Source of the DNA: an uncultured Planctomycetales bacterium
GTDB taxonomy: Bacteria > Omnitrophota > Gorgyraeia > Zapsychrales > Fredricksoniimonadaceae
Direction of reading: 5' to 3'
Length of the DNA: 64,000 bases
Assembly: GCA_964583975.1 (NCBI GenBank)
Contig: CAZOXU010000010.1
Location: 9,779 to 73,778 of the forward strand
This document shows, in pieces, positions 8,407 through 60,539 of the stretch. Every line of letters begins with the position of its first letter. Position 1 is the first letter of the stretch. Position numbers and translations under genes: made by a program. The notes beneath the pieces were generated by a model, which saw only the letters and a program-made list of their open reading frames with translations, made no database searches and was not told the origin of the DNA.

Positions 8407-8427
8407 TATAGATTAAAAGGCCTATAG

Positions 8428-8486
8428 GGGCAATCCCCCGTGGTTGCCCAATGATAAAAGGGCAGGCACAGGGGCCTGCCCCTACG
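8428..8486. repeat. REP-like element, family A, two-hairpin module, copy 1
   Basis: GGGCAA-TCCCCCGTGG-TTGCCC, then a spacer, then GGGCAGGC-ACAGGG-GCCTGCCC-CTACG. The second hairpin recurs at 16764-16790 and both recur at 23808-23864. Confidence 0.8.
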
Positions 8487-16741: not shown

Positions 16742-16763
16742 ATTATTTAATCTTTCTTGTACA

Positions 16764-16790
16764 GGGCAGGCACAGAGGCCTGCCCCTACG
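16764..16790. repeat. REP-like element, family A, second hairpin only, copy 2 (nuoM-nuoN intergenic)
   Basis: GGGCAGGCACAGAGGCCTGCCCCTACG, 26/27 identical to copies 1 and 3. It fills most of the 52 nt gap inside the nuoJKLMN transcription unit. Confidence 0.8.
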
Positions 16791-23153: not shown

Positions 23154-26100
23154 ATGTATATATACTTAAAGAAACCCCTTATATGTCTCCTTTTGTGCGC
23201 TTTTTTCTTCCAAAACTTGGGTTTTGGTCAAGGGACTGCCTCAGCGCAAGCTTTGCCCGAGCCAGGCATATTGCTTGAGCCCAGTGCAGCTTTTTCTCCA
23301 GCCCTGATGACTGGAATGACCATCCATCCTGAAAACCCGCTCGAATTTGATTTCATTGTTGATACCGGAGAAGACCATTTGCAAGGTGAAGAACTTAAAG
23401 CCCAAGCCCAGCGAATGGTGAATTACTTTATGGCAACCTTGACTGTTCCAGAAGATGAAATGTGGGTTAACCTTTCGCCTTATGAAAAGAACCACATCAT
23501 TGCCGATGGATTAAGCGTCACGGAAATGGGGCGTGACATGTTAGCCCAGGACTATCTTTTAAAACAGTTGACTGCCTCGCTCATTTATCCGGAACGAGAT
23601 TTGGGAAAGAAATTTTGGGAAGGTGTCTATAAAAAAGCCCAGGCCCTCTATGGCACAACCGAGGTTCCCGTAAATACGTTTAATAAAGTTTGGATCATTC
23701 CTGATGAAGCCAGCGTCTACAGCAAGGACAATAAAGTTTTTATTACGAATAGTCATTTGAAGGTGATGTTGGAATGCGATTACCTGGCGATGTCAAAACA
23801 AAATGTAGGGGCGACCCCCCGTGGTCGCCCTCAAGAAGGGCAGGCACAGGGGCCTGCCCCTACGGATACCAATATAATGGCCAATCAAATCGTCCGCGAC
23901 TTGGTCGTCCCCGCAATCACCAAGGAAATTAATGAAGGCAAAAACTTCGCCAATTTGCGCCAGATTTACAATTCTATGATTTTAGCAACATGGTATAAAC
24001 GCAAATTACACAAATTTGTACGGGCTGGGTCTCCCAGCCCTAACGCAAAGGGTGGGGAAACCCCACCCCTACAGAATTACATCGACCATAACAAAACCAA
24101 CGGCATTGAAATAGATGATAAAACCATCAAGGAAAAAATCTACAATCAATACCTGGCAGCATTCAAAAAAGGTGTGTTTAATTTTATTAAAGAAGACTCT
24201 TTGCCTACAGGCCAAACCATTCCTCGCAAGTATTTTGCCGGAGGCTTGGTCGCTCCAAAAGTGATCAAAGATGCAGCTACGCTATCTCCTGACTATTTAA
24301 TACAAGCCCAACGCAATCCGAAGGTGGTTGTTAGTGTTGATGCGCAACCGTTGAAAGAAGGTGTGGCTGATCAATCGATGGTATCAGAAGTAATACAGCT
24401 TTTATTTGGTCTTGATCAAAAGATCCTCGAAGAAAATTTTGGGTCAATGGACAATGTTATTGCTGCTGGCAAGGCCATGGCAGCTCTGAAACGATACGAT
24501 TGGAAGTCGGTGAGACATTTATTGAAAGGCGACGCTTTAGAAGTAAGGACTAAAATGCGTAATGAAGTTCGTACCGGTCAAAATAGCAGCACTCGCTTTG
24601 GAGGCCAGTTGGCGACTGATATTTTATTGGCCATTGGTAAATTTGCAAACTTGAATCCCCCAACTCAAAGTTTTATGTGGGAAGTGTTTAAAGACAAAAT
24701 AAGTAAGCTGCCTTCGGAGGTCGATAAATCGTCTTTGATGATCGGCTATATCGATGGACTGACGTCTCTAGAAGCAATGATTACCTTGGGAACTTTAACC
24801 GAAGATCGATTTAAAGATCCTACAGAAATGAGCACTAATCAAAGAGAAATATTGGCGCATGCTTTAGAGTTGAACCATGGAGATTTTAAACAGGCAATAG
24901 GTTACGTTCGTTGGATTCTTCCAGAAACCGGATTGTCAGATGCGGCGATGGCGGCTAATAAGGCGAAGAAACCATTGTCTGATTTATCCGAGGCAGAATT
25001 AAAAACTGAAATTATAGAACATATCTTTAAAGGGACACCATTAGATGGTGTTATCGATGATGTGCTGACTGTTTTTAATAGACAAGGTGGTTTTAGTGTA
25101 ATCCTTAAGTCTAAGCAAATGGATTTTTCTGTTTGGGATTTTAGCTACAATAAACAAAACATTACTTCGTGTACGTTTACCGGCAATAAATTTCGTAGTA
25201 AATATAATCGGGTACTACTGGGGTCCATTTTGTATTGGGCACAAACACGATGGGGTATGACCCGAGGCAGTGATTGGGCAACAGATCAGAAAGCTGCACA
25301 ATTCTTTGTCGATATTTTTGATGGTTGGGCTCTGCCAGGGCAAAATCCTGTCACATTCAAAAATGCTAGAATTACAGGTGGTTTTTTAATGAGTGTAGAT
25401 CTGACCAAATTAGATCTCGCTTCGCACTGGCCGTTTACAAATTTTGTGAATAAAGATAGGGCGATGGAGAGCCCCCAAGAGAATAAAGAGGCATTGCTAC
25501 GTGAACTTTTTCAAAATGAATTGCGTAAGATGACATCAGGCCTATTGTTTAGAATACTGCACAGATTATCTTTGGTTAATCCTATTCAAGCTGTTGCCCA
25601 AAGAGTAGTTGATTCGATTCTAGAAATGGAAGAATCTCCTCAAAGGGAAATGATGTTAGATTCAATTCGAAATTTCTCGCCTGCAGATTCAAGTAATTCA
25701 CTTATAGATCCAACCGACGCTGTTCTAATTCAAGCTAAACATTATCTCCAGGCTTTTGATTACCGCAGAATGATGCTGGCAGGGGCAATAAATGGCATGG
25801 CTGTATCTCTAGTAGAAGGTGTTCCTTTGTCGAAGACATTTTCATTTGGTGTAGATATTTTGGAAACCCCCAACGGTTTTCGTAGGTTTCAATACCTGGT
25901 TCGAAATGCCATGTTTCATCATGCAGATCATCTTAATTGGGAGCTACAAAAGCAATATCCAACAGATGGGCGCCAGTTAATGATTTTTGATTTGTTGCCT
26001 GATTACGCTAGATTTGGTTTCGATCCACCAGTAATCATTGCTGGTGAAGAGATTTCCAATGTCCCTTACGATCAATTGACTGTTGAGCAAAAAACATTGC

Positions 26101-27974
26101 TTAAGGTTGAAATGCAACGGTATGAGAATCGTGCACGCAAGGTAGCTGAATTCTTAGAAAGATTTCCTCCTCAAGTTGCCAATACGATAATGAACATTAA
26201 TGACGAAGACTTCCGGACACGTTTAACTCGAGATCTCATGAATAAAGATTTTAGCAACGCAAGGCAAAAACTTTTGGAACTCCAAGTTGAGCAAGATAAA
26301 TTAGCGGTAAAGATTGAAGAAATTAGTAGGACTATAAAATTAGAAGAAGCATTGTTAGAAATGAAACTGAGCGGTTCTTATTATCATCCTGAGGCCGTTG
26401 AGGATTTGTTAGAATTTGAAAAAGAACAAGAAAAGTTGATTTTTGAATTATATACGGAAAAGTATAAATCCTCTGATCAGCATGAGTATGTTATACATCT
26501 AATAAGGAATCTCTCAACCGATATCGAAAAACTATCGGCTACTGACAAGGCGATGGTGGCCAGTGGTGTGAAGAAGAAATTATCGGATTTATCCTCCACA
26601 GAATTAAGAGCTGAAATTATGAAGCATTTGATTAAAGGAACACCGTTGGAAGGCGTTGTAACAAATGTGAGAATTATTTCTAACCAAAGCGGAACGTTTC
26701 ATGCCATTTTTGATTCAGATCGATTTGGTACTTTGTATTGGGATTTTACTTATAAAGACCAAACCATTACTGAATTGACAATGACCGAAGGTGTGTTTCG
26801 AAGTCGATATAATCGTGTGCTTTTGGGATTGATACTGCATTGGGCGCAAACAAGATGGGGCATGACACAAGGCAAAAATTGGCCCATGGATCAAAAAGGC
26901 TCAGAGTTTTTCGTGAATGTTTTTAGTGAATGGGCCATCCCAGGGGAAAATCCTGTCACGTTGAATGGCGATAGTATCGCAGACGGTTTTAGTGTTGTAG
27001 ACTTTACCAAATTAGACCTCGTTCGCCACTGGCCGTTTGCCGATTTCGTGAATAAAGACAAGGCGATGACGGGGGAGTATGGCGCTAGTGTTGAGCGTAC
27101 GGCGAATGGTTTTACTGTCCGTTGGAAAGTGGCCTATGATAATATCGTGATCGAGCAATTTCCTCAATTGGTAGATAGTCTTTCAGTTATGGGCCCAGTG
27201 GAAGCCGCACAGAGATTTGCTTCAGGCCAGGAAGCAGTCACCTTATTACAAGTCGGGAATAAAGTAAAAGTATTTAGGCTCGAAGATGCTGAGGCTTTTG
27301 CTGAGAAATATCAGATTGCCGTTAGAATGGGGAATAGAAGTTACCGATTCAAAGGGCACAGGATTCAGCTTTTTGATCAACAAGGAATTATGCTGCAAGA
27401 ATTTGACGATCCAGAGATTCGGAGATTCTTGCTACTAAGAATTCATTCGGTGATTGGCTCTCTTTTAGTCGAAGTAGCTCGCAAAGACGTTCAAAGATTT
27501 ATGATGAAAGTTAAAGCCATGAAAGAAGGAATCACATATCAAGTTGATTTAATGAGTAAAAGTATCAATATACACTTGGGCGGAGTAAATCCTGTTATTG
27601 ATAAATTGACGGGCGCTATTATGCCAGAGGGTTTCCCGCCTACGTTGACAGATCAAGCTTACTTGCTCAGTCGGATGGCGTTGGCTTTGAGGTATACGGT
27701 TTTGGACGAAAGGGAGCAAAAAATCGTACGCCTTCCTTCTATGTCTGAGGTCTTGGCCTACAATCCCGTTGCTGATAATGCAATGACGGCCACCCCCGGC
27801 GGTATCGACTTTAATGCAAAGAACTTGAATTTAAAGGAACAAGGCTCCCCCAGCGAAACAGCATTTAAGCTAAGTGCTGAAAACGATCAAATCAACGGGA
27901 TTCGGCCGGTTATTATCAAAATCACCCCGGTCACCAATCTTCCTCAATTACTTGGGATAGATACCACTAGTTGA
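23154..27974 (+). CDS. giant secreted protein of unknown function (1606 aa) with an internal duplicated domain of about 170 aa
   Basis: N-terminal signal peptide (LICLLLCAFFFQNLGFG). A segment (about nt 24961-25470) recurs at about 26569-27075 with roughly 55% amino acid identity (KYNRVLLG..L.WAQTRWGMT.G..W..DQK). Two GC-rich palindromic repeat elements are inserted in frame (see repeats). Confidence 0.7.
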   Translation: MYIYLKKPLICLLLCAFFFQNLGFGQGTASAQALPEPGILLEPSAAFSPALMTGMTIHPENPLEFDFIVDTGEDHLQGEELKAQAQRMVNYFMATLTVPEDEMWVNLSPYEKNHIIADGLSVTEMGRDMLAQDYLLKQLTASLIYPERDLGKKFWEGVYKKAQALYGTTEVPVNTFNKVWIIPDEASVYSKDNKVFITNSHLKVMLECDYLAMSKQNVGATPRGRPQEGQAQGPAPTDTNIMANQIVRDLVVPAITKEINEGKNFANLRQIYNSMILATWYKRKLHKFVRAGSPSPNAKGGETPPLQNYIDHNKTNGIEIDDKTIKEKIYNQYLAAFKKGVFNFIKEDSLPTGQTIPRKYFAGGLVAPKVIKDAATLSPDYLIQAQRNPKVVVSVDAQPLKEGVADQSMVSEVIQLLFGLDQKILEENFGSMDNVIAAGKAMAALKRYDWKSVRHLLKGDALEVRTKMRNEVRTGQNSSTRFGGQLATDILLAIGKFANLNPPTQSFMWEVFKDKISKLPSEVDKSSLMIGYIDGLTSLEAMITLGTLTEDRFKDPTEMSTNQREILAHALELNHGDFKQAIGYVRWILPETGLSDAAMAANKAKKPLSDLSEAELKTEIIEHIFKGTPLDGVIDDVLTVFNRQGGFSVILKSKQMDFSVWDFSYNKQNITSCTFTGNKFRSKYNRVLLGSILYWAQTRWGMTRGSDWATDQKAAQFFVDIFDGWALPGQNPVTFKNARITGGFLMSVDLTKLDLASHWPFTNFVNKDRAMESPQENKEALLRELFQNELRKMTSGLLFRILHRLSLVNPIQAVAQRVVDSILEMEESPQREMMLDSIRNFSPADSSNSLIDPTDAVLIQAKHYLQAFDYRRMMLAGAINGMAVSLVEGVPLSKTFSFGVDILETPNGFRRFQYLVRNAMFHHADHLNWELQKQYPTDGRQLMIFDLLPDYARFGFDPPVIIAGEEISNVPYDQLTVEQKTLLKVEMQRYENRARKVAEFLERFPPQVANTIMNINDEDFRTRLTRDLMNKDFSNARQKLLELQVEQDKLAVKIEEISRTIKLEEALLEMKLSGSYYHPEAVEDLLEFEKEQEKLIFELYTEKYKSSDQHEYVIHLIRNLSTDIEKLSATDKAMVASGVKKKLSDLSSTELRAEIMKHLIKGTPLEGVVTNVRIISNQSGTFHAIFDSDRFGTLYWDFTYKDQTITELTMTEGVFRSRYNRVLLGLILHWAQTRWGMTQGKNWPMDQKGSEFFVNVFSEWAIPGENPVTLNGDSIADGFSVVDFTKLDLVRHWPFADFVNKDKAMTGEYGASVERTANGFTVRWKVAYDNIVIEQFPQLVDSLSVMGPVEAAQRFASGQEAVTLLQVGNKVKVFRLEDAEAFAEKYQIAVRMGNRSYRFKGHRIQLFDQQGIMLQEFDDPEIRRFLLLRIHSVIGSLLVEVARKDVQRFMMKVKAMKEGITYQVDLMSKSINIHLGGVNPVIDKLTGAIMPEGFPPTLTDQAYLLSRMALALRYTVLDEREQKIVRLPSMSEVLAYNPVADNAMTATPGGIDFNAKNLNLKEQGSPSETAFKLSAENDQINGIRPVIIKITPVTNLPQLLGIDTTS
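23808..23864. repeat. REP-like element, family A, two-hairpin module, copy 3, inserted in frame inside the 1606 aa CDS
   Basis: GGGCGAC-CCCCCGTG-GTCGCCC ... GGGCAGGCACAGGGGCCTGCCCCTACG. The first stem covaries with copy 1 (CAA/TTG versus CGAC/GTCG). It encodes a G/P-rich peptide (GATPRGRPQEGQAQGPAPTD). Confidence 0.8.
24015..24069. repeat. REP-like element, family B (GTAC-GGGC head), inserted in frame in the 1606 aa CDS
   Basis: GTACGGGCTGGGTCTCCCAGCCC ... GGGTGGGG-aaa-CCCCACCC. Same GGGCTGGGT-N-ACCCAGCCC palindrome as the copies at 30683, 33033 and 57684. Confidence 0.75.
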
Positions 27975-30289: not shown

Positions 30290-30325
30290 ATCGTACGGGC
30301 GGGGGGGTGCCCCGCCCGATAATAA
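30290..30325. repeat. REP-like family B variant after the amtB stop
   Basis: GTACGGGCGGGGG-ggtg-CCCCGCCCG, with a GTAC head and a GC-rich palindrome. Confidence 0.6.
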
Positions 30326-30340: not shown

Positions 30341-30682
30341 ATGAAATTAGTGCTAGCAATCATACAGCCTCATAGACTCGAAGAAGTCAAAAAGGAGCTC
30401 TATGCCGCCGACGTTAACTTGATCACCGTTTCTGAGGTCTTAGGACATGGTCGTCAGGTGGGTGTTGATGAGTATTACCGTGGAGTGAAAGAAACCGGAA
30501 ACCTGTTGCGTAAGATTCAGGTTGAAATCGCAGTCAACGAAGATTATGTTGAACCAACTGTTAAAGCAATTATTAAGGGTGCTAGAACAGGTAAAATAGG
30601 CGATGGAAAGATTTTCGTCTTAGATTTGCCTCGCTGTATCCGCATCCGTACGGGCGAAGAAGGTTCCAAGGCGATTGGGTAG
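30341..30682 (+). CDS. glnK: nitrogen regulatory protein P-II (GlnK-type, linked to amtB)
   Basis: 113 aa P-II fold sequence with a T-loop tyrosine region (DEYYRG). AGGAGG SD. Immediately downstream of amtB. Confidence 0.88.
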   Translation: MKLVLAIIQPHRLEEVKKELYAADVNLITVSEVLGHGRQVGVDEYYRGVKETGNLLRKIQVEIAVNEDYVEPTVKAIIKGARTGKIGDGKIFVLDLPRCIRIRTGEEGSKAIG

Positions 30683-30723
30683 GGGCTGGGTAACCCAGCC
30701 CGTACACACACATGTGCACGGGC
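30683..30723. repeat. REP-like element, family B, after the glnK stop
   Basis: GGGCTGGGT-A-ACCCAGCCC, then GTACACACACATGTGCAC, then GGGC. Confidence 0.75.
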
Positions 30724-33028: not shown

Positions 33029-33032
33029 AGTA

Positions 33033-33070
33033 AGGGCTGGGTTACCTGCCTGCCGGCAGGCGTAGCCCTT
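33033..33070. repeat. REP-like element, family B-related compound hairpin after the glnN stop
   Basis: AAGGGCTGGGTTA-CCTGCC-tgcc-GGCAGG-CGTAGCCCTT. Contains a GTAG motif on the right arm. Confidence 0.7.
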
Positions 33071-33080
33071 AATAATATAA

Positions 33081-33116
33081 AAAGGGCGGATAAACTTTAT
33101 CCGCCCTTTTTGTTTT
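33081..33116 (+). terminator. rho-independent terminator after glnN
   Basis: Perfect 12 bp stem AAAGGGCGGATA / TATCCGCCCTTT with a 5 nt loop, followed by TTTTGTTTT. Confidence 0.8.
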
Positions 33117-56307: not shown

Positions 56308-57684
56308 ATGTGTGGAATCGTTGGAGTCAGCCATCATAAGCAAGCCAGTCGGATCGCGTTTCTAGGCCTGTATGCGCTTCAGCATAGAGGAGAAGAAGCA
56401 GCTGGGATTGTTTCCTACGATGGCAAAGACACCCACGTACTTAAAAGAATTGGTTTGGCAACTGACCAATTTGATGAAGAAAATATCAGCAAACTTACCG
56501 GTCATATGGCAATCGCCCACACCCGTTACTCTACGACAGGTGGTTCACATTTAAAAAACGTACAACCGATCTTAGTTACTCATCGCAAAAAACCTATAGC
56601 CGTAGCACATAATGGTAATCTAACAAATACGGAAGAACTTTGTCATAGACTGGAAGAAGAAGGTTCTATTTTTCAGACTTCGATGGATTCAGAGGTTTTT
56701 GTTCATCTTCTTGCTAAAAGTCCTAATGGCGATTTAAAACGCTGGCTAGTTGATGTCTTTAGTCAGGTTAAAGGAGCCTTTTCCGTTGTTCTCTTGGTTG
56801 AAGATCATTTAATTGGAGTCAGAGATCCGCAAGGTTTTAGACCTTTATGTTTAGGCCAATTGGGGGACAGTTATATTCTGGCTTCTGAAAGCTGCGCATT
56901 TGATTTGATGAAAGCTGAATTTGTACGCGAGATCGAACCTGGTGAAATAGTGATGATTAAGGGTAATAAATTAGAATCCACATTTTTACCAGATGCCAAA
57001 AAGACCCGACGAGCCAGCTGCATATTTGAGAATGTTTATTTTGCAAGACCAGATAGCCATATTTTTGATGATAATGTTTACCAAGTCAGGAAACGTTTAG
57101 GACAGCAATTAGCCAAGGAACATCCAGCCCAAGCCGATTTTGTGATGGGGATCCCCGACTCAGGTAATTATGCAGCGATTGGTTATGCGCAAGAATTGAA
57201 ACTACCTTTTGAAATAGGAATGATCCGTAATCACTATATTGGCCGCACCTTCATCCAGCCGAGCCAGTTTATGCGTGAGTTTCGAGTACGCGTTAAGCTA
57301 AATCCTATTCGAGATTTGATTAAGGGCAAGAACGTTATTGTGGTAGAAGATTCAATCGTTCGAGGAACAACCTCCAGAAATCGTATCCAAGAAATTCGTA
57401 ATGCCGGGGCAAAATCCATTCACATGCGCATTTCTTGTCCACCGATCAAATGGCCATGTTTTTTTGGCATTGATTTTCCTTCAACCAAAGAACTAATTGC
57501 ACATAATAAAACTGTTAAAGAAATAGCTGATTTTATCGAGGTGGATTCCCTGGAGTATTTGAGTTTAGAAGGAATGACTTCGGTAATGAAAGACAAGGGA
57601 TTCTGTACGGCTTGCTTTACGGGAAATTATCCGATTGACGTCCCTAAGAACACCGATAAATTGAAATTAGAAGGTTGTAGGTAG
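56308..57684 (+). CDS. purF: amidophosphoribosyltransferase
   Basis: 458 aa with an N-terminal MCGIVG nucleophile and a PRTase domain. Possible 4Fe-4S cysteines (CPPIKWPCFFG ... CTAC). Confidence 0.92.
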   Translation: MCGIVGVSHHKQASRIAFLGLYALQHRGEEAAGIVSYDGKDTHVLKRIGLATDQFDEENISKLTGHMAIAHTRYSTTGGSHLKNVQPILVTHRKKPIAVAHNGNLTNTEELCHRLEEEGSIFQTSMDSEVFVHLLAKSPNGDLKRWLVDVFSQVKGAFSVVLLVEDHLIGVRDPQGFRPLCLGQLGDSYILASESCAFDLMKAEFVREIEPGEIVMIKGNKLESTFLPDAKKTRRASCIFENVYFARPDSHIFDDNVYQVRKRLGQQLAKEHPAQADFVMGIPDSGNYAAIGYAQELKLPFEIGMIRNHYIGRTFIQPSQFMREFRVRVKLNPIRDLIKGKNVIVVEDSIVRGTTSRNRIQEIRNAGAKSIHMRISCPPIKWPCFFGIDFPSTKELIAHNKTVKEIADFIEVDSLEYLSLEGMTSVMKDKGFCTACFTGNYPIDVPKNTDKLKLEGCR

Positions 57685-57735
57685 GGGCTGGGTGACCCAG
57701 CCCAATTAAAGGCGAGGAGACCTCGCCCGTACAGG
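57684..57735. repeat. REP-like element, family B, between purF and pyrG
   Basis: GGGGCTGGGTGACCCAGCCC, then aattaaa, then GGCGAGG-aga-CCTCGCC, then CGTACAGG. Confidence 0.75.
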
Positions 57736-59349: not shown

Positions 59350-59361
59350 TTGATGATTTAT

Positions 59362-59443
59362 GCGCGGGTGGCGGAATTGGTATACGCGCACGTTTGAGGG
59401 GCGTGTGCCGCAAGGCTTGAGGGTTCAACTCCCTCCCCGCGCA
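59362..59443 (+). tRNA. tRNA-Leu (anticodon GAG), class II with a long variable arm
   Basis: Manual fold. Acceptor GCGCGGG/CCCGCGC with discriminator A. D-arm GCG-GAATTGGTATA-CGC. Anticodon stem CACGT/GCGTG with loop TTGAGGG, giving anticodon GAG. 13 nt variable arm TGCCGCAAGGCTT. T-arm GAGGG-TTCAACT-CCCTC. No encoded CCA. Confidence 0.8.
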
Positions 59444-59455
59444 CTGTATAAAAAT

Positions 59456-59737
59456 ATGCATTACGTTTACGTATTAAGAAGTATTAAAAATCAAAGACGT
59501 TATGTAGGAAGTACGGGGTTATTGCCTGAAGAACGTTGTCGAGAGCATAATGCGGGCGCTAGTAGGTGGACAAAAGGCAATCGTCCATTTGTTTTAATGT
59601 ATCAAGAAAGCTATTCGACAAATACAGAAGCACGGAAACGTGAGAATTTTCTAAAAAGTGGGGTAGGAAGGAAATTCTTAGATAGCCTTTTAAATCATGA
59701 AAGGGTTTCCGCCGAAGGCGGATCAGCCTCTGGCTGA
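59456..59737 (+). CDS. GIY-YIG nuclease superfamily small protein (UPF0213/YhbQ-like)
   Basis: 93 aa from the ATG at 59456 with the GIY-YIG core (YVYVLRS ... RYVGSTGLL ... R..EHN). The ORF-track N-terminal extension runs over the tRNA and is not credible. Confidence 0.7.
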   Translation: MHYVYVLRSIKNQRRYVGSTGLLPEERCREHNAGASRWTKGNRPFVLMYQESYSTNTEARKRENFLKSGVGRKFLDSLLNHERVSAEGGSASG

Positions 59738-59757
59738 CAACTCCCTCCCCGCGCACT
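59738..59757 (+). repeat. 20 bp direct repeat of the tRNA-Leu 3' end (att-like duplication)
   Basis: CAACTCCCTCCCCGCGCACT is identical to 59426-59445 within the tRNA. It begins immediately after the GIY-YIG stop codon and is preceded by a variable-arm-like hairpin CCGCCGAAGGCGG. Confidence 0.8.
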
Positions 59758-59764
59758 CTGCTTC

Positions 59765-59802
59765 GCTCCAACTGTTGTCTTGCGACAGCAAGACGTTGGA
59801 GC
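59765..59802 (+). promoter_or_regulatory. long near-perfect hairpin upstream of rpe
   Basis: GCTCCAAC-TGTTGTCTTGC-gaca-GCAAGAC-G-TTGGAGC. A candidate terminator/insulator between the tRNA/GIY-YIG unit and rpe, with no strong T-run. Confidence 0.4.
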
Positions 59803-59828
59803 TTCGCAGAAATAAACCAGGTAAACTT

Positions 59829-60539
59829 ATGGCAAAACCGATTGAAGTATCTGCAAGTATCCTTGCTGCTGATTTTGCAAATCTAGCTCGCGATATCAAG
59901 CGTTCTGAAGAATTTGGTGTCGATCGTTTTCATGTAGATTGTATGGATGGCCATTTTGTACCTAACATGACTATTGGTCCAATCATTATCCAAGCCATGC
60001 GTGGGTATACCCAATTACCCATCGAAGCTCATTTGATGATTGAAAACCCTTGGAATTATATTGAACATTATGCCAAGGCAGGTGCGGATATTATTCAAAT
60101 TCAAGTCGAGTGTTATGGGCTTCGTCGTCCGAATTGCCGCCAATTTGGTCAGTGGCCTAAGGAAATAGATGTGGTGGATATTGACGGTGATTTATTAATT
60201 GCTGATTTAAGAAAAATTCGTGCTTTAGGAAAAAAGGCTTTTATTGTAGTCAATCCAGGTACGCCGCTATTTAAGGAAATATTACCTGAGTGCGATGGCG
60301 TATTGATCATGTCTGTTAATCCAGGCTTTGCGGGGCAGAAATTTATTCCTACCGTTTTACCTAAGTTAGAAGAACTTAAAAAAAGTTTTAAGGGTGATAT
60401 TGCGATCGATGGTGGCATCAATGACCAAACAGCGCCTGGCGCCGTTGGGGCAGGAGCCAGGGTTTTGATCACAGCCAGCTATTTGTATGGAGCCTCAAAC
60501 CCTAAAGAAGTCGTTGCCTCTCTAAAGCGCCTCAATTAG
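59829..60539 (+). CDS. rpe: ribulose-phosphate 3-epimerase
   Basis: 236 aa from MAKPIEVSASILAADF with Rpe motifs (HVDCMDGHFVPN, metal His/Asp). It has a roughly 20 aa insertion (CYGLRRPNCRQFGQWPKEIDV) relative to typical Rpe. The ORF-track start at 59697 reads through the upstream repeat. Confidence 0.85.
   Translation: MAKPIEVSASILAADFANLARDIKRSEEFGVDRFHVDCMDGHFVPNMTIGPIIIQAMRGYTQLPIEAHLMIENPWNYIEHYAKAGADIIQIQVECYGLRRPNCRQFGQWPKEIDVVDIDGDLLIADLRKIRALGKKAFIVVNPGTPLFKEILPECDGVLIMSVNPGFAGQKFIPTVLPKLEELKKSFKGDIAIDGGINDQTAPGAVGAGARVLITASYLYGASNPKEVVASLKRLN

Follow-up and report, generated by a model that had tools for sequence, protein, structure and literature searches.

Two repetitive extragenic palindrome (REP) dimers, here called A and B, lie in frame within a gene for a large surface protein of 1606 amino acids (aa) from an uncultured Omnitrophota bacterium. 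The gene is carried on a 64-kb stretch of contig CAZOXU010000010.1 (assembly GCA_964583975.1), referred to below as the window. Both dimers are very probably head-to-head, GTAG-tagged REPs that are tolerated as passengers in loops of the protein's N-terminal domain (N-domain). Type A elements are almost certainly REPs of the subclass 2.4 system, which corresponds to group 4 of the REP-associated tyrosine transposases (RAYTs). In-frame REP dimers of this type are already published (PMC3733652, PMC6006769), and the observation is confirmed here; what is modestly new is that the host phylum is Omnitrophota and that a single expanded protein family has taken up repeats in the same loops again and again.

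The host open reading frame (ORF) is uninterrupted and is the sole long ORF across 23700-24200. Pattern searches and a generic hairpin scan found four perfect 8-bp GC hairpins in it, at 23809-23830, 23838-23859, 24022-24040 and 24050-24068; 100 dinucleotide-preserving shuffles of the window for each hairpin pattern gave zero matches (expectation 0.00). Each REP unit follows the plan GGGnnnnn-loop-nnnnnCCC, with a loop of 3 or 6 nucleotides (nt) and GTAG or GTAC at the foot. In the host gene the units are paired head to head with the tags outermost: GTAG at 23805-23808, CTAC at 23860-23863 and again at 24069-24072, and the GTAC variant at 24018-24021.

Dimer A starts with GTAG + GGGCGACC-CCCCGT-GGTCGCCC (hairpin 1), followed by the spacer TCAAGAA and by GGGCAGGC-ACAGGG-GCCTGCCC + CTAC (hairpin 2); it is translated as VGATPRGRPQEGQAQGPAPT (aa 218-237). 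Dimer B is made up of GTAC + GGGCTGGG-TCT-CCCAGCCC, the spacer TAACGCAAA and GGGTGGGG-AAA-CCCCACCC + CTAC, with the translation VRAGSPSPNAKGGETPPL (aa 289-306). Read on the opposite strand, unit 2 of A matches the shape of unit 1, GTAGGGGC-nnnC-CCCYGT-Gnnn-GCCC; A thus consists of one REP type in two inverted copies, which differ only in compensating inner stem bases. The original prediction, made from the letters of the window, had placed two palindromic repeat modules in frame inside this ORF. The four perfect hairpins, the unbroken ORF and the zero shuffle matches bear this out, and the peptides that it quoted are found at aa 219-238 and 290-307. The extents that it gave (23808-23864 and 24015-24069) need correction to 23805-23863 and 24018-24072 once the tags are counted.

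The GC content is 0.73 in dimer A and 0.66 in dimer B, against 0.42 in the remaining N-domain. Folded as single-stranded DNA, the two dimers have energy z-scores of -3.8 and -4.8 relative to shuffles, and the REPs overall range from -3.2 to -4.8. Dimer B folds as two separate hairpins. The minimum-energy fold of the ORF copy of A is also two hairpins, while its centroid is one long hairpin; the best fold of the intergenic type-A dimer at 8424-8485 is one long imperfect hairpin. An Rfam scan of the elements found no family, with only sub-threshold matches to miRNA-like hairpins. Coordinates of all features are collected in Table 1.

Table 1. Host gene, REP elements of the window and RAYT-like genes of other genomes (positions in the window unless a locus is named).
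Feature	Position	Strand	Basis
Host gene, 1606-aa protein	23154..27974	+	ORF list, translation
REP dimer A, head-to-head, 59 nt	23805..23863	+	pattern and hairpin scans, folding
REP dimer B, head-to-head, 55 nt	24018..24072	+	pattern and hairpin scans, folding, alignment
Intergenic type-A REP dimer, tag ATAG	8424..8485	+	pattern search, folding
Single double-foot REP, GTAC-A-GGGCAGGC-ACAGAG-GCCTGCCC-CTAC	16760..16789	+	pattern search, folding
Single REP, GTAC GGGCGGGG-GGGTG-CCCCGCCC	30293..30318	+	hairpin scan
Single double-foot type-B REP, GTAG GGGCTGGG-TAA-CCCAGCCC GTAC	30679..30705	+	pattern search, folding
Degenerate, interrupted type-B REP downstream of glnN (glutamine synthetase III)	33030..33070	+	sequence inspection
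Intergenic head-to-head type-B dimer	57681..57732	+	pattern and hairpin scans, folding
RAYT-like gene with internal REP dimer	L088 829-1497	-	phmmer probe, Pfam
RAYT-like gene with internal REP dimer	L105 5-679	-	phmmer probe, Pfam
RAYT-like gene with internal REP dimer	L095 1976-2677	-	phmmer probe, Pfam

The host protein comprises an N-terminal hydrophobic helix, an N-domain of ~400 aa, a unique middle and a conserved C-terminal GGIDxN module; a Pfam scan of it found no family. A homologue search with the whole protein returned 4223 matches, which cover only the first 21-28% of the query (approximately the first 400 residues). These homologues are apparently all from Omnitrophota wherever the source is named. 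Beyond the N-domain they differ from protein to protein and often carry unrelated enzyme domains. No full-length orthologue is among the homologues found; the best partial orthologue is protein P0158, with 46% identity in the N-domain and a common 77-residue C-terminal module. The N-domain family seems to be built of a head and a tail that are conserved, with variable cargo between them.

Some further features of the host protein can be listed here. Its C-terminal module at aa 1538-1602 (DNAM...GGID[FL]N...PVII.I.P) is common to P0158, and the middles of the two proteins are unrelated. A D-x-A-M motif occurs at aa 406, 596, 768, 1131, 1302 and 1541, which are apparent module boundaries; across 120 homologues its frequency is ~10 times the expectation (1.06 vs 0.10 per 1000 aa), and a role as linker, processing signal or sorting signal in these multi-module Omnitrophota proteins is possible. 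A module of ~172 aa is duplicated within the protein (aa ~600-775 and ~1135-1306; 55% identity, E = 3e-71), and both copies terminate in FVNKD[RK]AM.

The N-domains of 120 homologues were aligned with MAFFT; the loop that holds A is termed site 1 and the loop that holds B site 2. Frame and homology are retained on both sides of each dimer. At site 2, the columns for aa 292-306 are empty in 117 of the 120 homologues while the flanking columns are occupied in all 120, and the anchors WYK...Y.[NDST].[NGADST][KRL] have a canonical 11-residue spacing in 105 of 113 proteins; dimer B is thus a true insertion. Site 1 is a loop in every homologue, with a length of ~8 to 60 residues, and dimer A lies within this hypervariable loop, whose commonest form, GSTKHGLGNVTKDDIEVIS, has no relation to REP. 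The comparison with homologues that the original prediction proposed as a check separates the two sites: that of B is nearly always empty, and that of A is hypervariable. For in-frame insertion of REP-type palindromes the prediction is upheld by the same-frame homology on both flanks and the near-universal lack of B. For A as a mobile repeat, it is upheld by a hairpin-for-hairpin match with intergenic copies and with unrelated genomes.

The AlphaFold2 (AF2) model places both inserts in coil with a predicted local distance difference test score (pLDDT) below 50: A between helices 207-217 and 238-261, and B between helices 263-291 and 305-313. The flanking helices are confident despite a weak overall model. 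This low-confidence coil placement covers the two loops that are filled in the host gene and not a third loop, which is occupied in P0158 (see below).

By our own count, roughly a fifth of the 120 best homologues have repeat-like sequence in the site-1 loop. Proteins P0012, P0028 and P0031 (~50% N-domain identity) read VGATPRGRP[QD]EGQAQGP[AS]PT at site 1; these three were compared as proteins, and the DNA comparison comes from loci L144 and L146-L149. Of the exact proteins looked up, P0012 is on record, and no record matched P0001, P0028 or P0031. P0158 carries the stem variant VGAGPRACPECKGQPQGPAPT at site 1, with junctions as in the host gene, and has no insert at site 2. A third loop of P0158 (aa ~320-345, after NKTQGIEYN) holds a REP dimer, VGAAPSGRPQQDGDHQQGQAQGPAPT, which is absent from the host protein.

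In L144, which encodes a 42% identical protein, both hairpins are 26/26 identical to those of dimer A and lie in the same loop. The left junction has the same phase and is one codon nearer a conserved DY motif; the right junction differs, and hairpin 2 is read in another frame due to a 6-nt spacer. L146 and L147 are paralogues from one sample with a common left junction and a homologous spacer of ~24-25 nt. Both show decay: in one, hairpin 2 carries three mismatches, while the other lacks the right arm of hairpin 1. Type-B sequence (VRAGSPSP...) is present at both site 1 and site 2 of P0007. Seven further proteins have inserts at site 2, several of which start with or include VG[AN].

Other palindromes use the same loop. 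In L148 (3655-3795) the unrelated palindrome GTCATTGCGAGGAGCGAAGCGACGAAGCAATCT, of the GTCATTGCGAG type, is in frame at site 1; L149 (3649-3819) has two copies of TGGATTTTCATCAAAAATCCA, of the TGGATTTTCA type, together with another hairpin, also in frame at site 1, and MDFHQKST is duplicated there. In a second L148 paralogue the loop is ordinary, and no palindromic repeat is evident there. VIPAKAGIH, VILSAAKDL and other loop peptides of further homologues are presumably typical translations of other palindromic repeat families. The suggestion that the giant protein is a hotspot is supported at the level of the protein family, in which repeats recur in the N-domain loops.

Short loops without a REP occur in the closest subfamily (fragments P0122, P0125 and P0127), with the sequence EGIQSGQAQTKNTN or EGIQSIQAQVKDTN. 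They could derive from ...EGQAQGPAPTDTN by extensive decay, in which case the site-1 REP is older than it looks. A further search for homologues, with 153 aa around the inserts as the query, returned 35 short fragments, in which short loops without a REP are seen, and no long proteins. A 30-aa query against 1.8 billion representatives gave 8 matches and was too short for statistical power. A metagenome scan for REP hairpin 2 with WYK at the right distance found 25 loci, of which only L144 is a family member. Inspection by eye of the 9-nt flanks of 27 dimers revealed no insertion target motif, except for a purine after CTAC in most copies.

Dimer A is not confined to Omnitrophota. The 26-mer of its hairpin 2 (GGGCAGGCACAGRGGCCTGCCCCTAC) occurs exactly in at least 120 species-representative genome stretches (L001-L120) from more than 15 phyla, among them Desulfobacterota, Nitrospirota, Chloroflexota, Acidobacteriota, Planctomycetota, Proteobacteria and Omnitrophota; cultured isolates with the 26-mer belong to Sedimenticola, Desulfobotulus, Desulfosarcina and Thermalbibacter. 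It is often accompanied by the partner hairpin GTAGGGGCRRCCCCCYGTGGYYGCCC. The whole dimer is present in 25 of the at least 120 loci; the spacer between its hairpins measures 1-40 nt, and its stems vary in a compensating manner. Across copies, the stem variant is AACC/GGTT in 11, GGCC/GGCC in 8 and GACC/GGTC in 5. Identity of hairpin 2 across phyla is unusual for REPs and fits carriage within a horizontally moving RAYT gene.

Candidate genes of this kind are found in the same loci. A phmmer probe, with a RayT query sequence, of all ORFs in ~1 Mb of REP-selected loci identified eight Y1 transposase ORFs. All four that were scanned (L088, L105, L095 and L047) pass the cut-off of Pfam PF01797 (Y1_Tnp). 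The best NCBIfam model for L088 and L105 is the REP-associated tyrosine transposase, at 70.8 and 65.3 bits (cut-off 80), and in both the match is split in two by an insert. A crude regular expression for RAYT motifs near REPs found no match.

An in-frame REP dimer lies between the HUH and Tyr motifs in four of the eight ORFs (L088, L095, L105 and L125), in the RAYT-like L035 and in protein P0157, which has four tandem REP dimers inside the transposase. The REP inside the transposase gene is of type A in L088, L095, L105, L035 and P0157, with stem variants in the last two; both L088 hairpins are 26/26 identical to those of the window's dimer A. In the L088, L095 and L105 transposases the dimer is read as VGATPRG[RC]P...GQAQGPAPT, the frame that is used in the host gene.

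The dimer also occurs in frame (VRATPRGCPGQAQGPAPT) at ~2351 on the + strand of L062, a metagenome-assembled genome of Nitrospirota, within a 554-codon ORF. This ORF resembles cobyric acid synthase (CobQ), as we take it from recognised motifs. Housekeeping genes of other phyla may thus host dimer A as well.

A mechanism for the passenger explanation can be proposed. According to published work, a RAYT of subclass 2.4 (a Y1/HUH enzyme) would spread REPs as single-stranded hairpins. Copies would have landed in three loops of the large Omnitrophota N-domain family, between predicted helices, where extra residues are presumably tolerated, and only frame-keeping copies free of stop codons would survive. 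The dimer is free of stop codons in the frame GTA-GGG-GCN, the one in which it is also read inside the transposase gene. The ribosome would then read through it, adding 15-20 residues of Gly/Pro/Ala-rich coil per site. No specific function would be needed, and the passengers would add variability to the loop. Once at a site, a copy could be inherited, decay or be replaced by other REP variants. Given the pristine hairpins, mobilisation may be, or may recently have been, active, as the original prediction held.

Several points weigh against this explanation. Every GTAG-REP copy seen at site 1 has the same phase and lies at the same codon or one codon away, a pattern expected of a single old insertion, or of site-specific targeting, more than of many random hits. 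The dimer lengths, 59 and 55 nt, are not multiples of 3, so each event must also have cost the host some bases, by loss or by replacement, and how A and B were first joined to the host sequence cannot be reconstructed. The AF2 model behind the predicted coil placement is weak (mean pLDDT 57.5, predicted template modelling score 0.52). No RAYT gene was found in the window by the phmmer probe of its ORFs or by Pfam scans of 10 small ORFs. Finally, family B was not found in the ~1 Mb of family-A loci; type B may be a lineage-specific REP family.

The same elements may have had a different history, and this is a sub-model of the passenger explanation rather than a replacement for it. One ancient REP insertion per loop could have been inherited through expansion of the family and refreshed or replaced at its conserved GTAGGGGC/GCCCCTAC ends by recombination or RAYT; this is plausible, though somewhat short of an even prospect. 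The left junction, (N or T) followed by GTA GGG GCG, keeps its phase and shifts by at most one codon among the window, L144, L146, L147 and P0158, and all GTAG-REP copies seen at site 1 are in the V-G-A frame. L146 and L147 add a homologous spacer with decay, and REP-bearing members have common local flanks (AM.K..V...T[DE]TN....QI[IV]R[ED]). However, L144 departs from this pattern in its 6-nt spacer, the frame of its hairpin 2 and its right junction, and the window hairpins are perfect although the genes are 42-56% identical. In addition, the loop has been filled by no fewer than four mutually unrelated palindrome families (REP-A, REP-B in P0007, GTCATTGCGAG in L148 and TGGATTTTCA in L149), which requires several independent events. 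At site 1, then, the shared junction and phase favour one old insertion with turnover, while the unrelated families and L144 need several events.

The remaining explanations are much less attractive. The three loops could be a built-in diversification site that preferentially captures and exchanges palindromic repeats of several families, or the repeats could be recombination points for new C-terminal modules, but this is unlikely; if a diversification site, it would let the loops of these surface proteins vary rapidly in what is putatively a predator or epibiont. A nucleic-acid role, in which the hairpins are kept for pausing of transcription or translation between sub-domains, for mRNA protection or as recombination points that shuffle N-domains, is distinctly improbable. 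Different palindrome families recur at the same loop, perfect hairpins stand inside a 42% GC gene and the N-domain is fused to many differing C-terminal parts, all of which such a role would accommodate. Yet most family members, including the second L148 paralogue, have no palindrome, decayed copies are tolerated, and the ORF hairpins are unlike intrinsic terminators, with no T-run behind them by eye (no terminator scan was made). The byp elements of yeast mitochondria are likewise mobile and GC-rich, and a resemblance to mobile GC hairpins in coding regions is the one point in favour of the next reading. Removal from the RNA or skipping by the ribosome, as with byp, would leave the segments untranslated, but it would not require the frame to be preserved; all copies seen in the family, including those with differing spacer lengths, and likewise the copies inside RAYT genes, are frame-keeping and stop-free, and this makes it very hard to credit. 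An artefact is least credible of all, be it coding sequence that resembles a REP by chance or convergence, or an assembly error by which a repeat was placed in the gene. The source is probably a metagenome-assembled genome and the host protein is on record once, from a 75-kb contig; on the other hand, both flanks align in order, and in frame, with homologues, the same arrangement is seen in independent assemblies (L144, P0012, P0028, P0031 and P0158), and the 26-nt repeats are presumably shorter than the k-mers in the contig names of comparable assemblies (k127, k141). Chance resemblance in particular is rejected, as zero shuffle matches are expected for each hairpin pattern.

If the dimers are passengers, they provide a clean DNA-level example, from an uncultured phylum, of how a REP dimer of the RAYT subclass 2.4 type can be decoded as part of a protein. 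The reading frame in the host gene is that of the transposase gene bearing the same dimer. For annotation, they account for odd Gly/Pro-rich, high-GC segments in the giant proteins of Omnitrophota and in many metagenomic hypothetical proteins. The recurrence of unrelated palindromes at the same loops is a natural test of whether in-frame insertions are merely filtered by selection or are also targeted.

Eight REP sites are present in the window, six intergenic and two in the host ORF; four are dimers (two of them in the host ORF) and two or three are double-foot singles. In the intergenic type-A dimer, hairpin 1 is a variant that includes one G-T pair (GGGCAATC/GGTTGCCC), whereas hairpin 2 repeats 23838-23863 exactly. 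The original prediction described dimer A as identical to the intergenic copies. This is correct for hairpin 2 plus CTAC, which matches 8460-8485 at 26/26 positions and 16764-16789 at 25/26, but not for hairpin 1, which differs from 8428-8449 at 3 positions (GACC/GGTC vs AATC/GGTT), nor for the spacer, which is 7 nt in the ORF and 10 nt in the intergenic dimer. Derivation of the intergenic copies from the host gene is rejected, as the same dimer is found in phyla without that gene.

The REP at 16760-16789 lies between two minus-strand Proton_antipo_M (nuoM/N-like) genes, and that at 30293-30318 between an ammonium transporter gene (amtB) and a P-II gene. Two type-B copies provide stop codons: the TAG within the GTAG tag at 30679-30682 ends the P-II gene (ORF end 30682), and the one at 57681-57684 ends a purF-like gene (ORF end 57684). 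The dimer behind the purF-like gene consists of GTAG GGGCTGGG-TGA-CCCAGCCC, the spacer AATTAAA and GGCGAGG-AGA-CCTCGCC C GTAC. The type-B palindrome was said to follow three genes; it is intact after the P-II gene (30683-30701) and the purF-like gene (57685-57703), but the copy after glnN is degenerate and interrupted. Behind this last copy, at ~33083-33115, a GC hairpin with a T-run resembles an intrinsic terminator by eye.

The copies of the hairpin-2 26-mer at 8460, 16764 and 23838 are all on the + strand; three are too few for a test of strand bias. Cumulative GC skew climbs across most of the window, with a small dip at ~16-20 kb, and the + strand may therefore be the leading strand. A tRNA gene at 59362-59443 (Rfam, 50.3 bits) lies beneath the start of the mechanically called ORF 59360-59737; this ORF is probably spurious due to the overlap. 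The ribulose-phosphate 3-epimerase ORF at 59697-60539 (280 aa) has its Pfam match in two stretches, and its start may be later than listed.

Rickettsia palindromic elements (RPEs) are mobile palindromic repeats whose insertion without a frame break gives functional proteins an additional peptide segment, and dimers A and B resemble them in this. RPE-1 is ~100-150 bp long, AT-richer and not known outside Rickettsia. Dimers A and B, in contrast, are GTAG-type dimers of 55-59 nt in Omnitrophota and have no sequence relation to RPEs. The original prediction was right to regard them as a separate sequence family; they are not undescribed, however, as they belong to the known GTAG-tagged REP type. 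RPE-1 has been described as one of the "longer palindromic insertions", while RPE-4 and RPE-6 are classed as CGTC REPs and not as GTAG REPs (PMC3733652).

REP doublets known as REPINs (Bertels and Rainey 2011, PMC3116915) also consist of two inverted REPs with a short spacer, and the dimer at 8424-8485 folds like them as a long hairpin. Dimer A differs from REPINs in that the inner stem bases of its arms are not the same (GACC vs AGGC) and in that the best fold of the ORF copy is two hairpins. For classic REPINs the described mode is vertical inheritance within a genus, whereas dimer A is shared across phyla.

TnpAREP subclass 2.4 (Quentin, Siguier, Chandler and Fichant 2018, PMC6006769) equals RAYT group 4 (Bertels et al. 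2017, PMC5581495). According to PMC6006769, the subclass has a stem base of three G-C pairs, double-foot REPs and a patchy distribution across phyla; unique to it are in-frame REPs carried by the transposase gene itself, in the section that separates HUH from Y, and in-frame copies elsewhere, in unrelated genes, could do no harm where they fall in flexible loops. The window elements share the GT[AG]G foot, the three basal G-C pairs, the double-foot copies and the patchy phyla of that description. They also agree with the short GC-rich stem of 6-13 bp that it gives, all four ORF hairpins being perfect 8-bp GGGnnnnn/nnnnnCCC stems, and with its multiple, mostly intergenic copies downstream of ORFs, as both dimers and double-foot singles occur within the window. 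Unlike the systems described there, the window has no such transposase gene, and Omnitrophota is not among the phyla named for the group in the accessible parts of PMC6006769 and PMC5581495. The in-transposase REPs of that account have their counterpart in L088, where the hairpins inside the transposase gene are identical to those of dimer A.

The closest precedent for the host gene is the definition of GTAG-tagged REPs by Di Nocera, De Gregorio and Rocco (2013, PMC3733652), which includes head-to-head dimers and REPs that provide TAG stops. REPs wholly inside ORFs were reported in the same work; more than half of these are dimers or groups that encode 20-30 aa, sometimes two per ORF, and they are most frequent in R. 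conorii and in Opitutus terrae, a bacterium of the Planctomycetes-Verrucomicrobia-Chlamydiae group. Like those intragenic GTAG/CGTC REPs, the elements of the window form head-to-head dimers with outward tags, provide TAG stops, encode in-frame peptides and, as in O. terrae and R. conorii, occur as two inserts in one ORF. Many of the intragenic REPs in that system lie in DNA repair and RNA-binding genes at differing sites; in the Omnitrophota family, by contrast, the same loop of a multi-paralogue surface-protein domain is used recurrently and by several repeat families.

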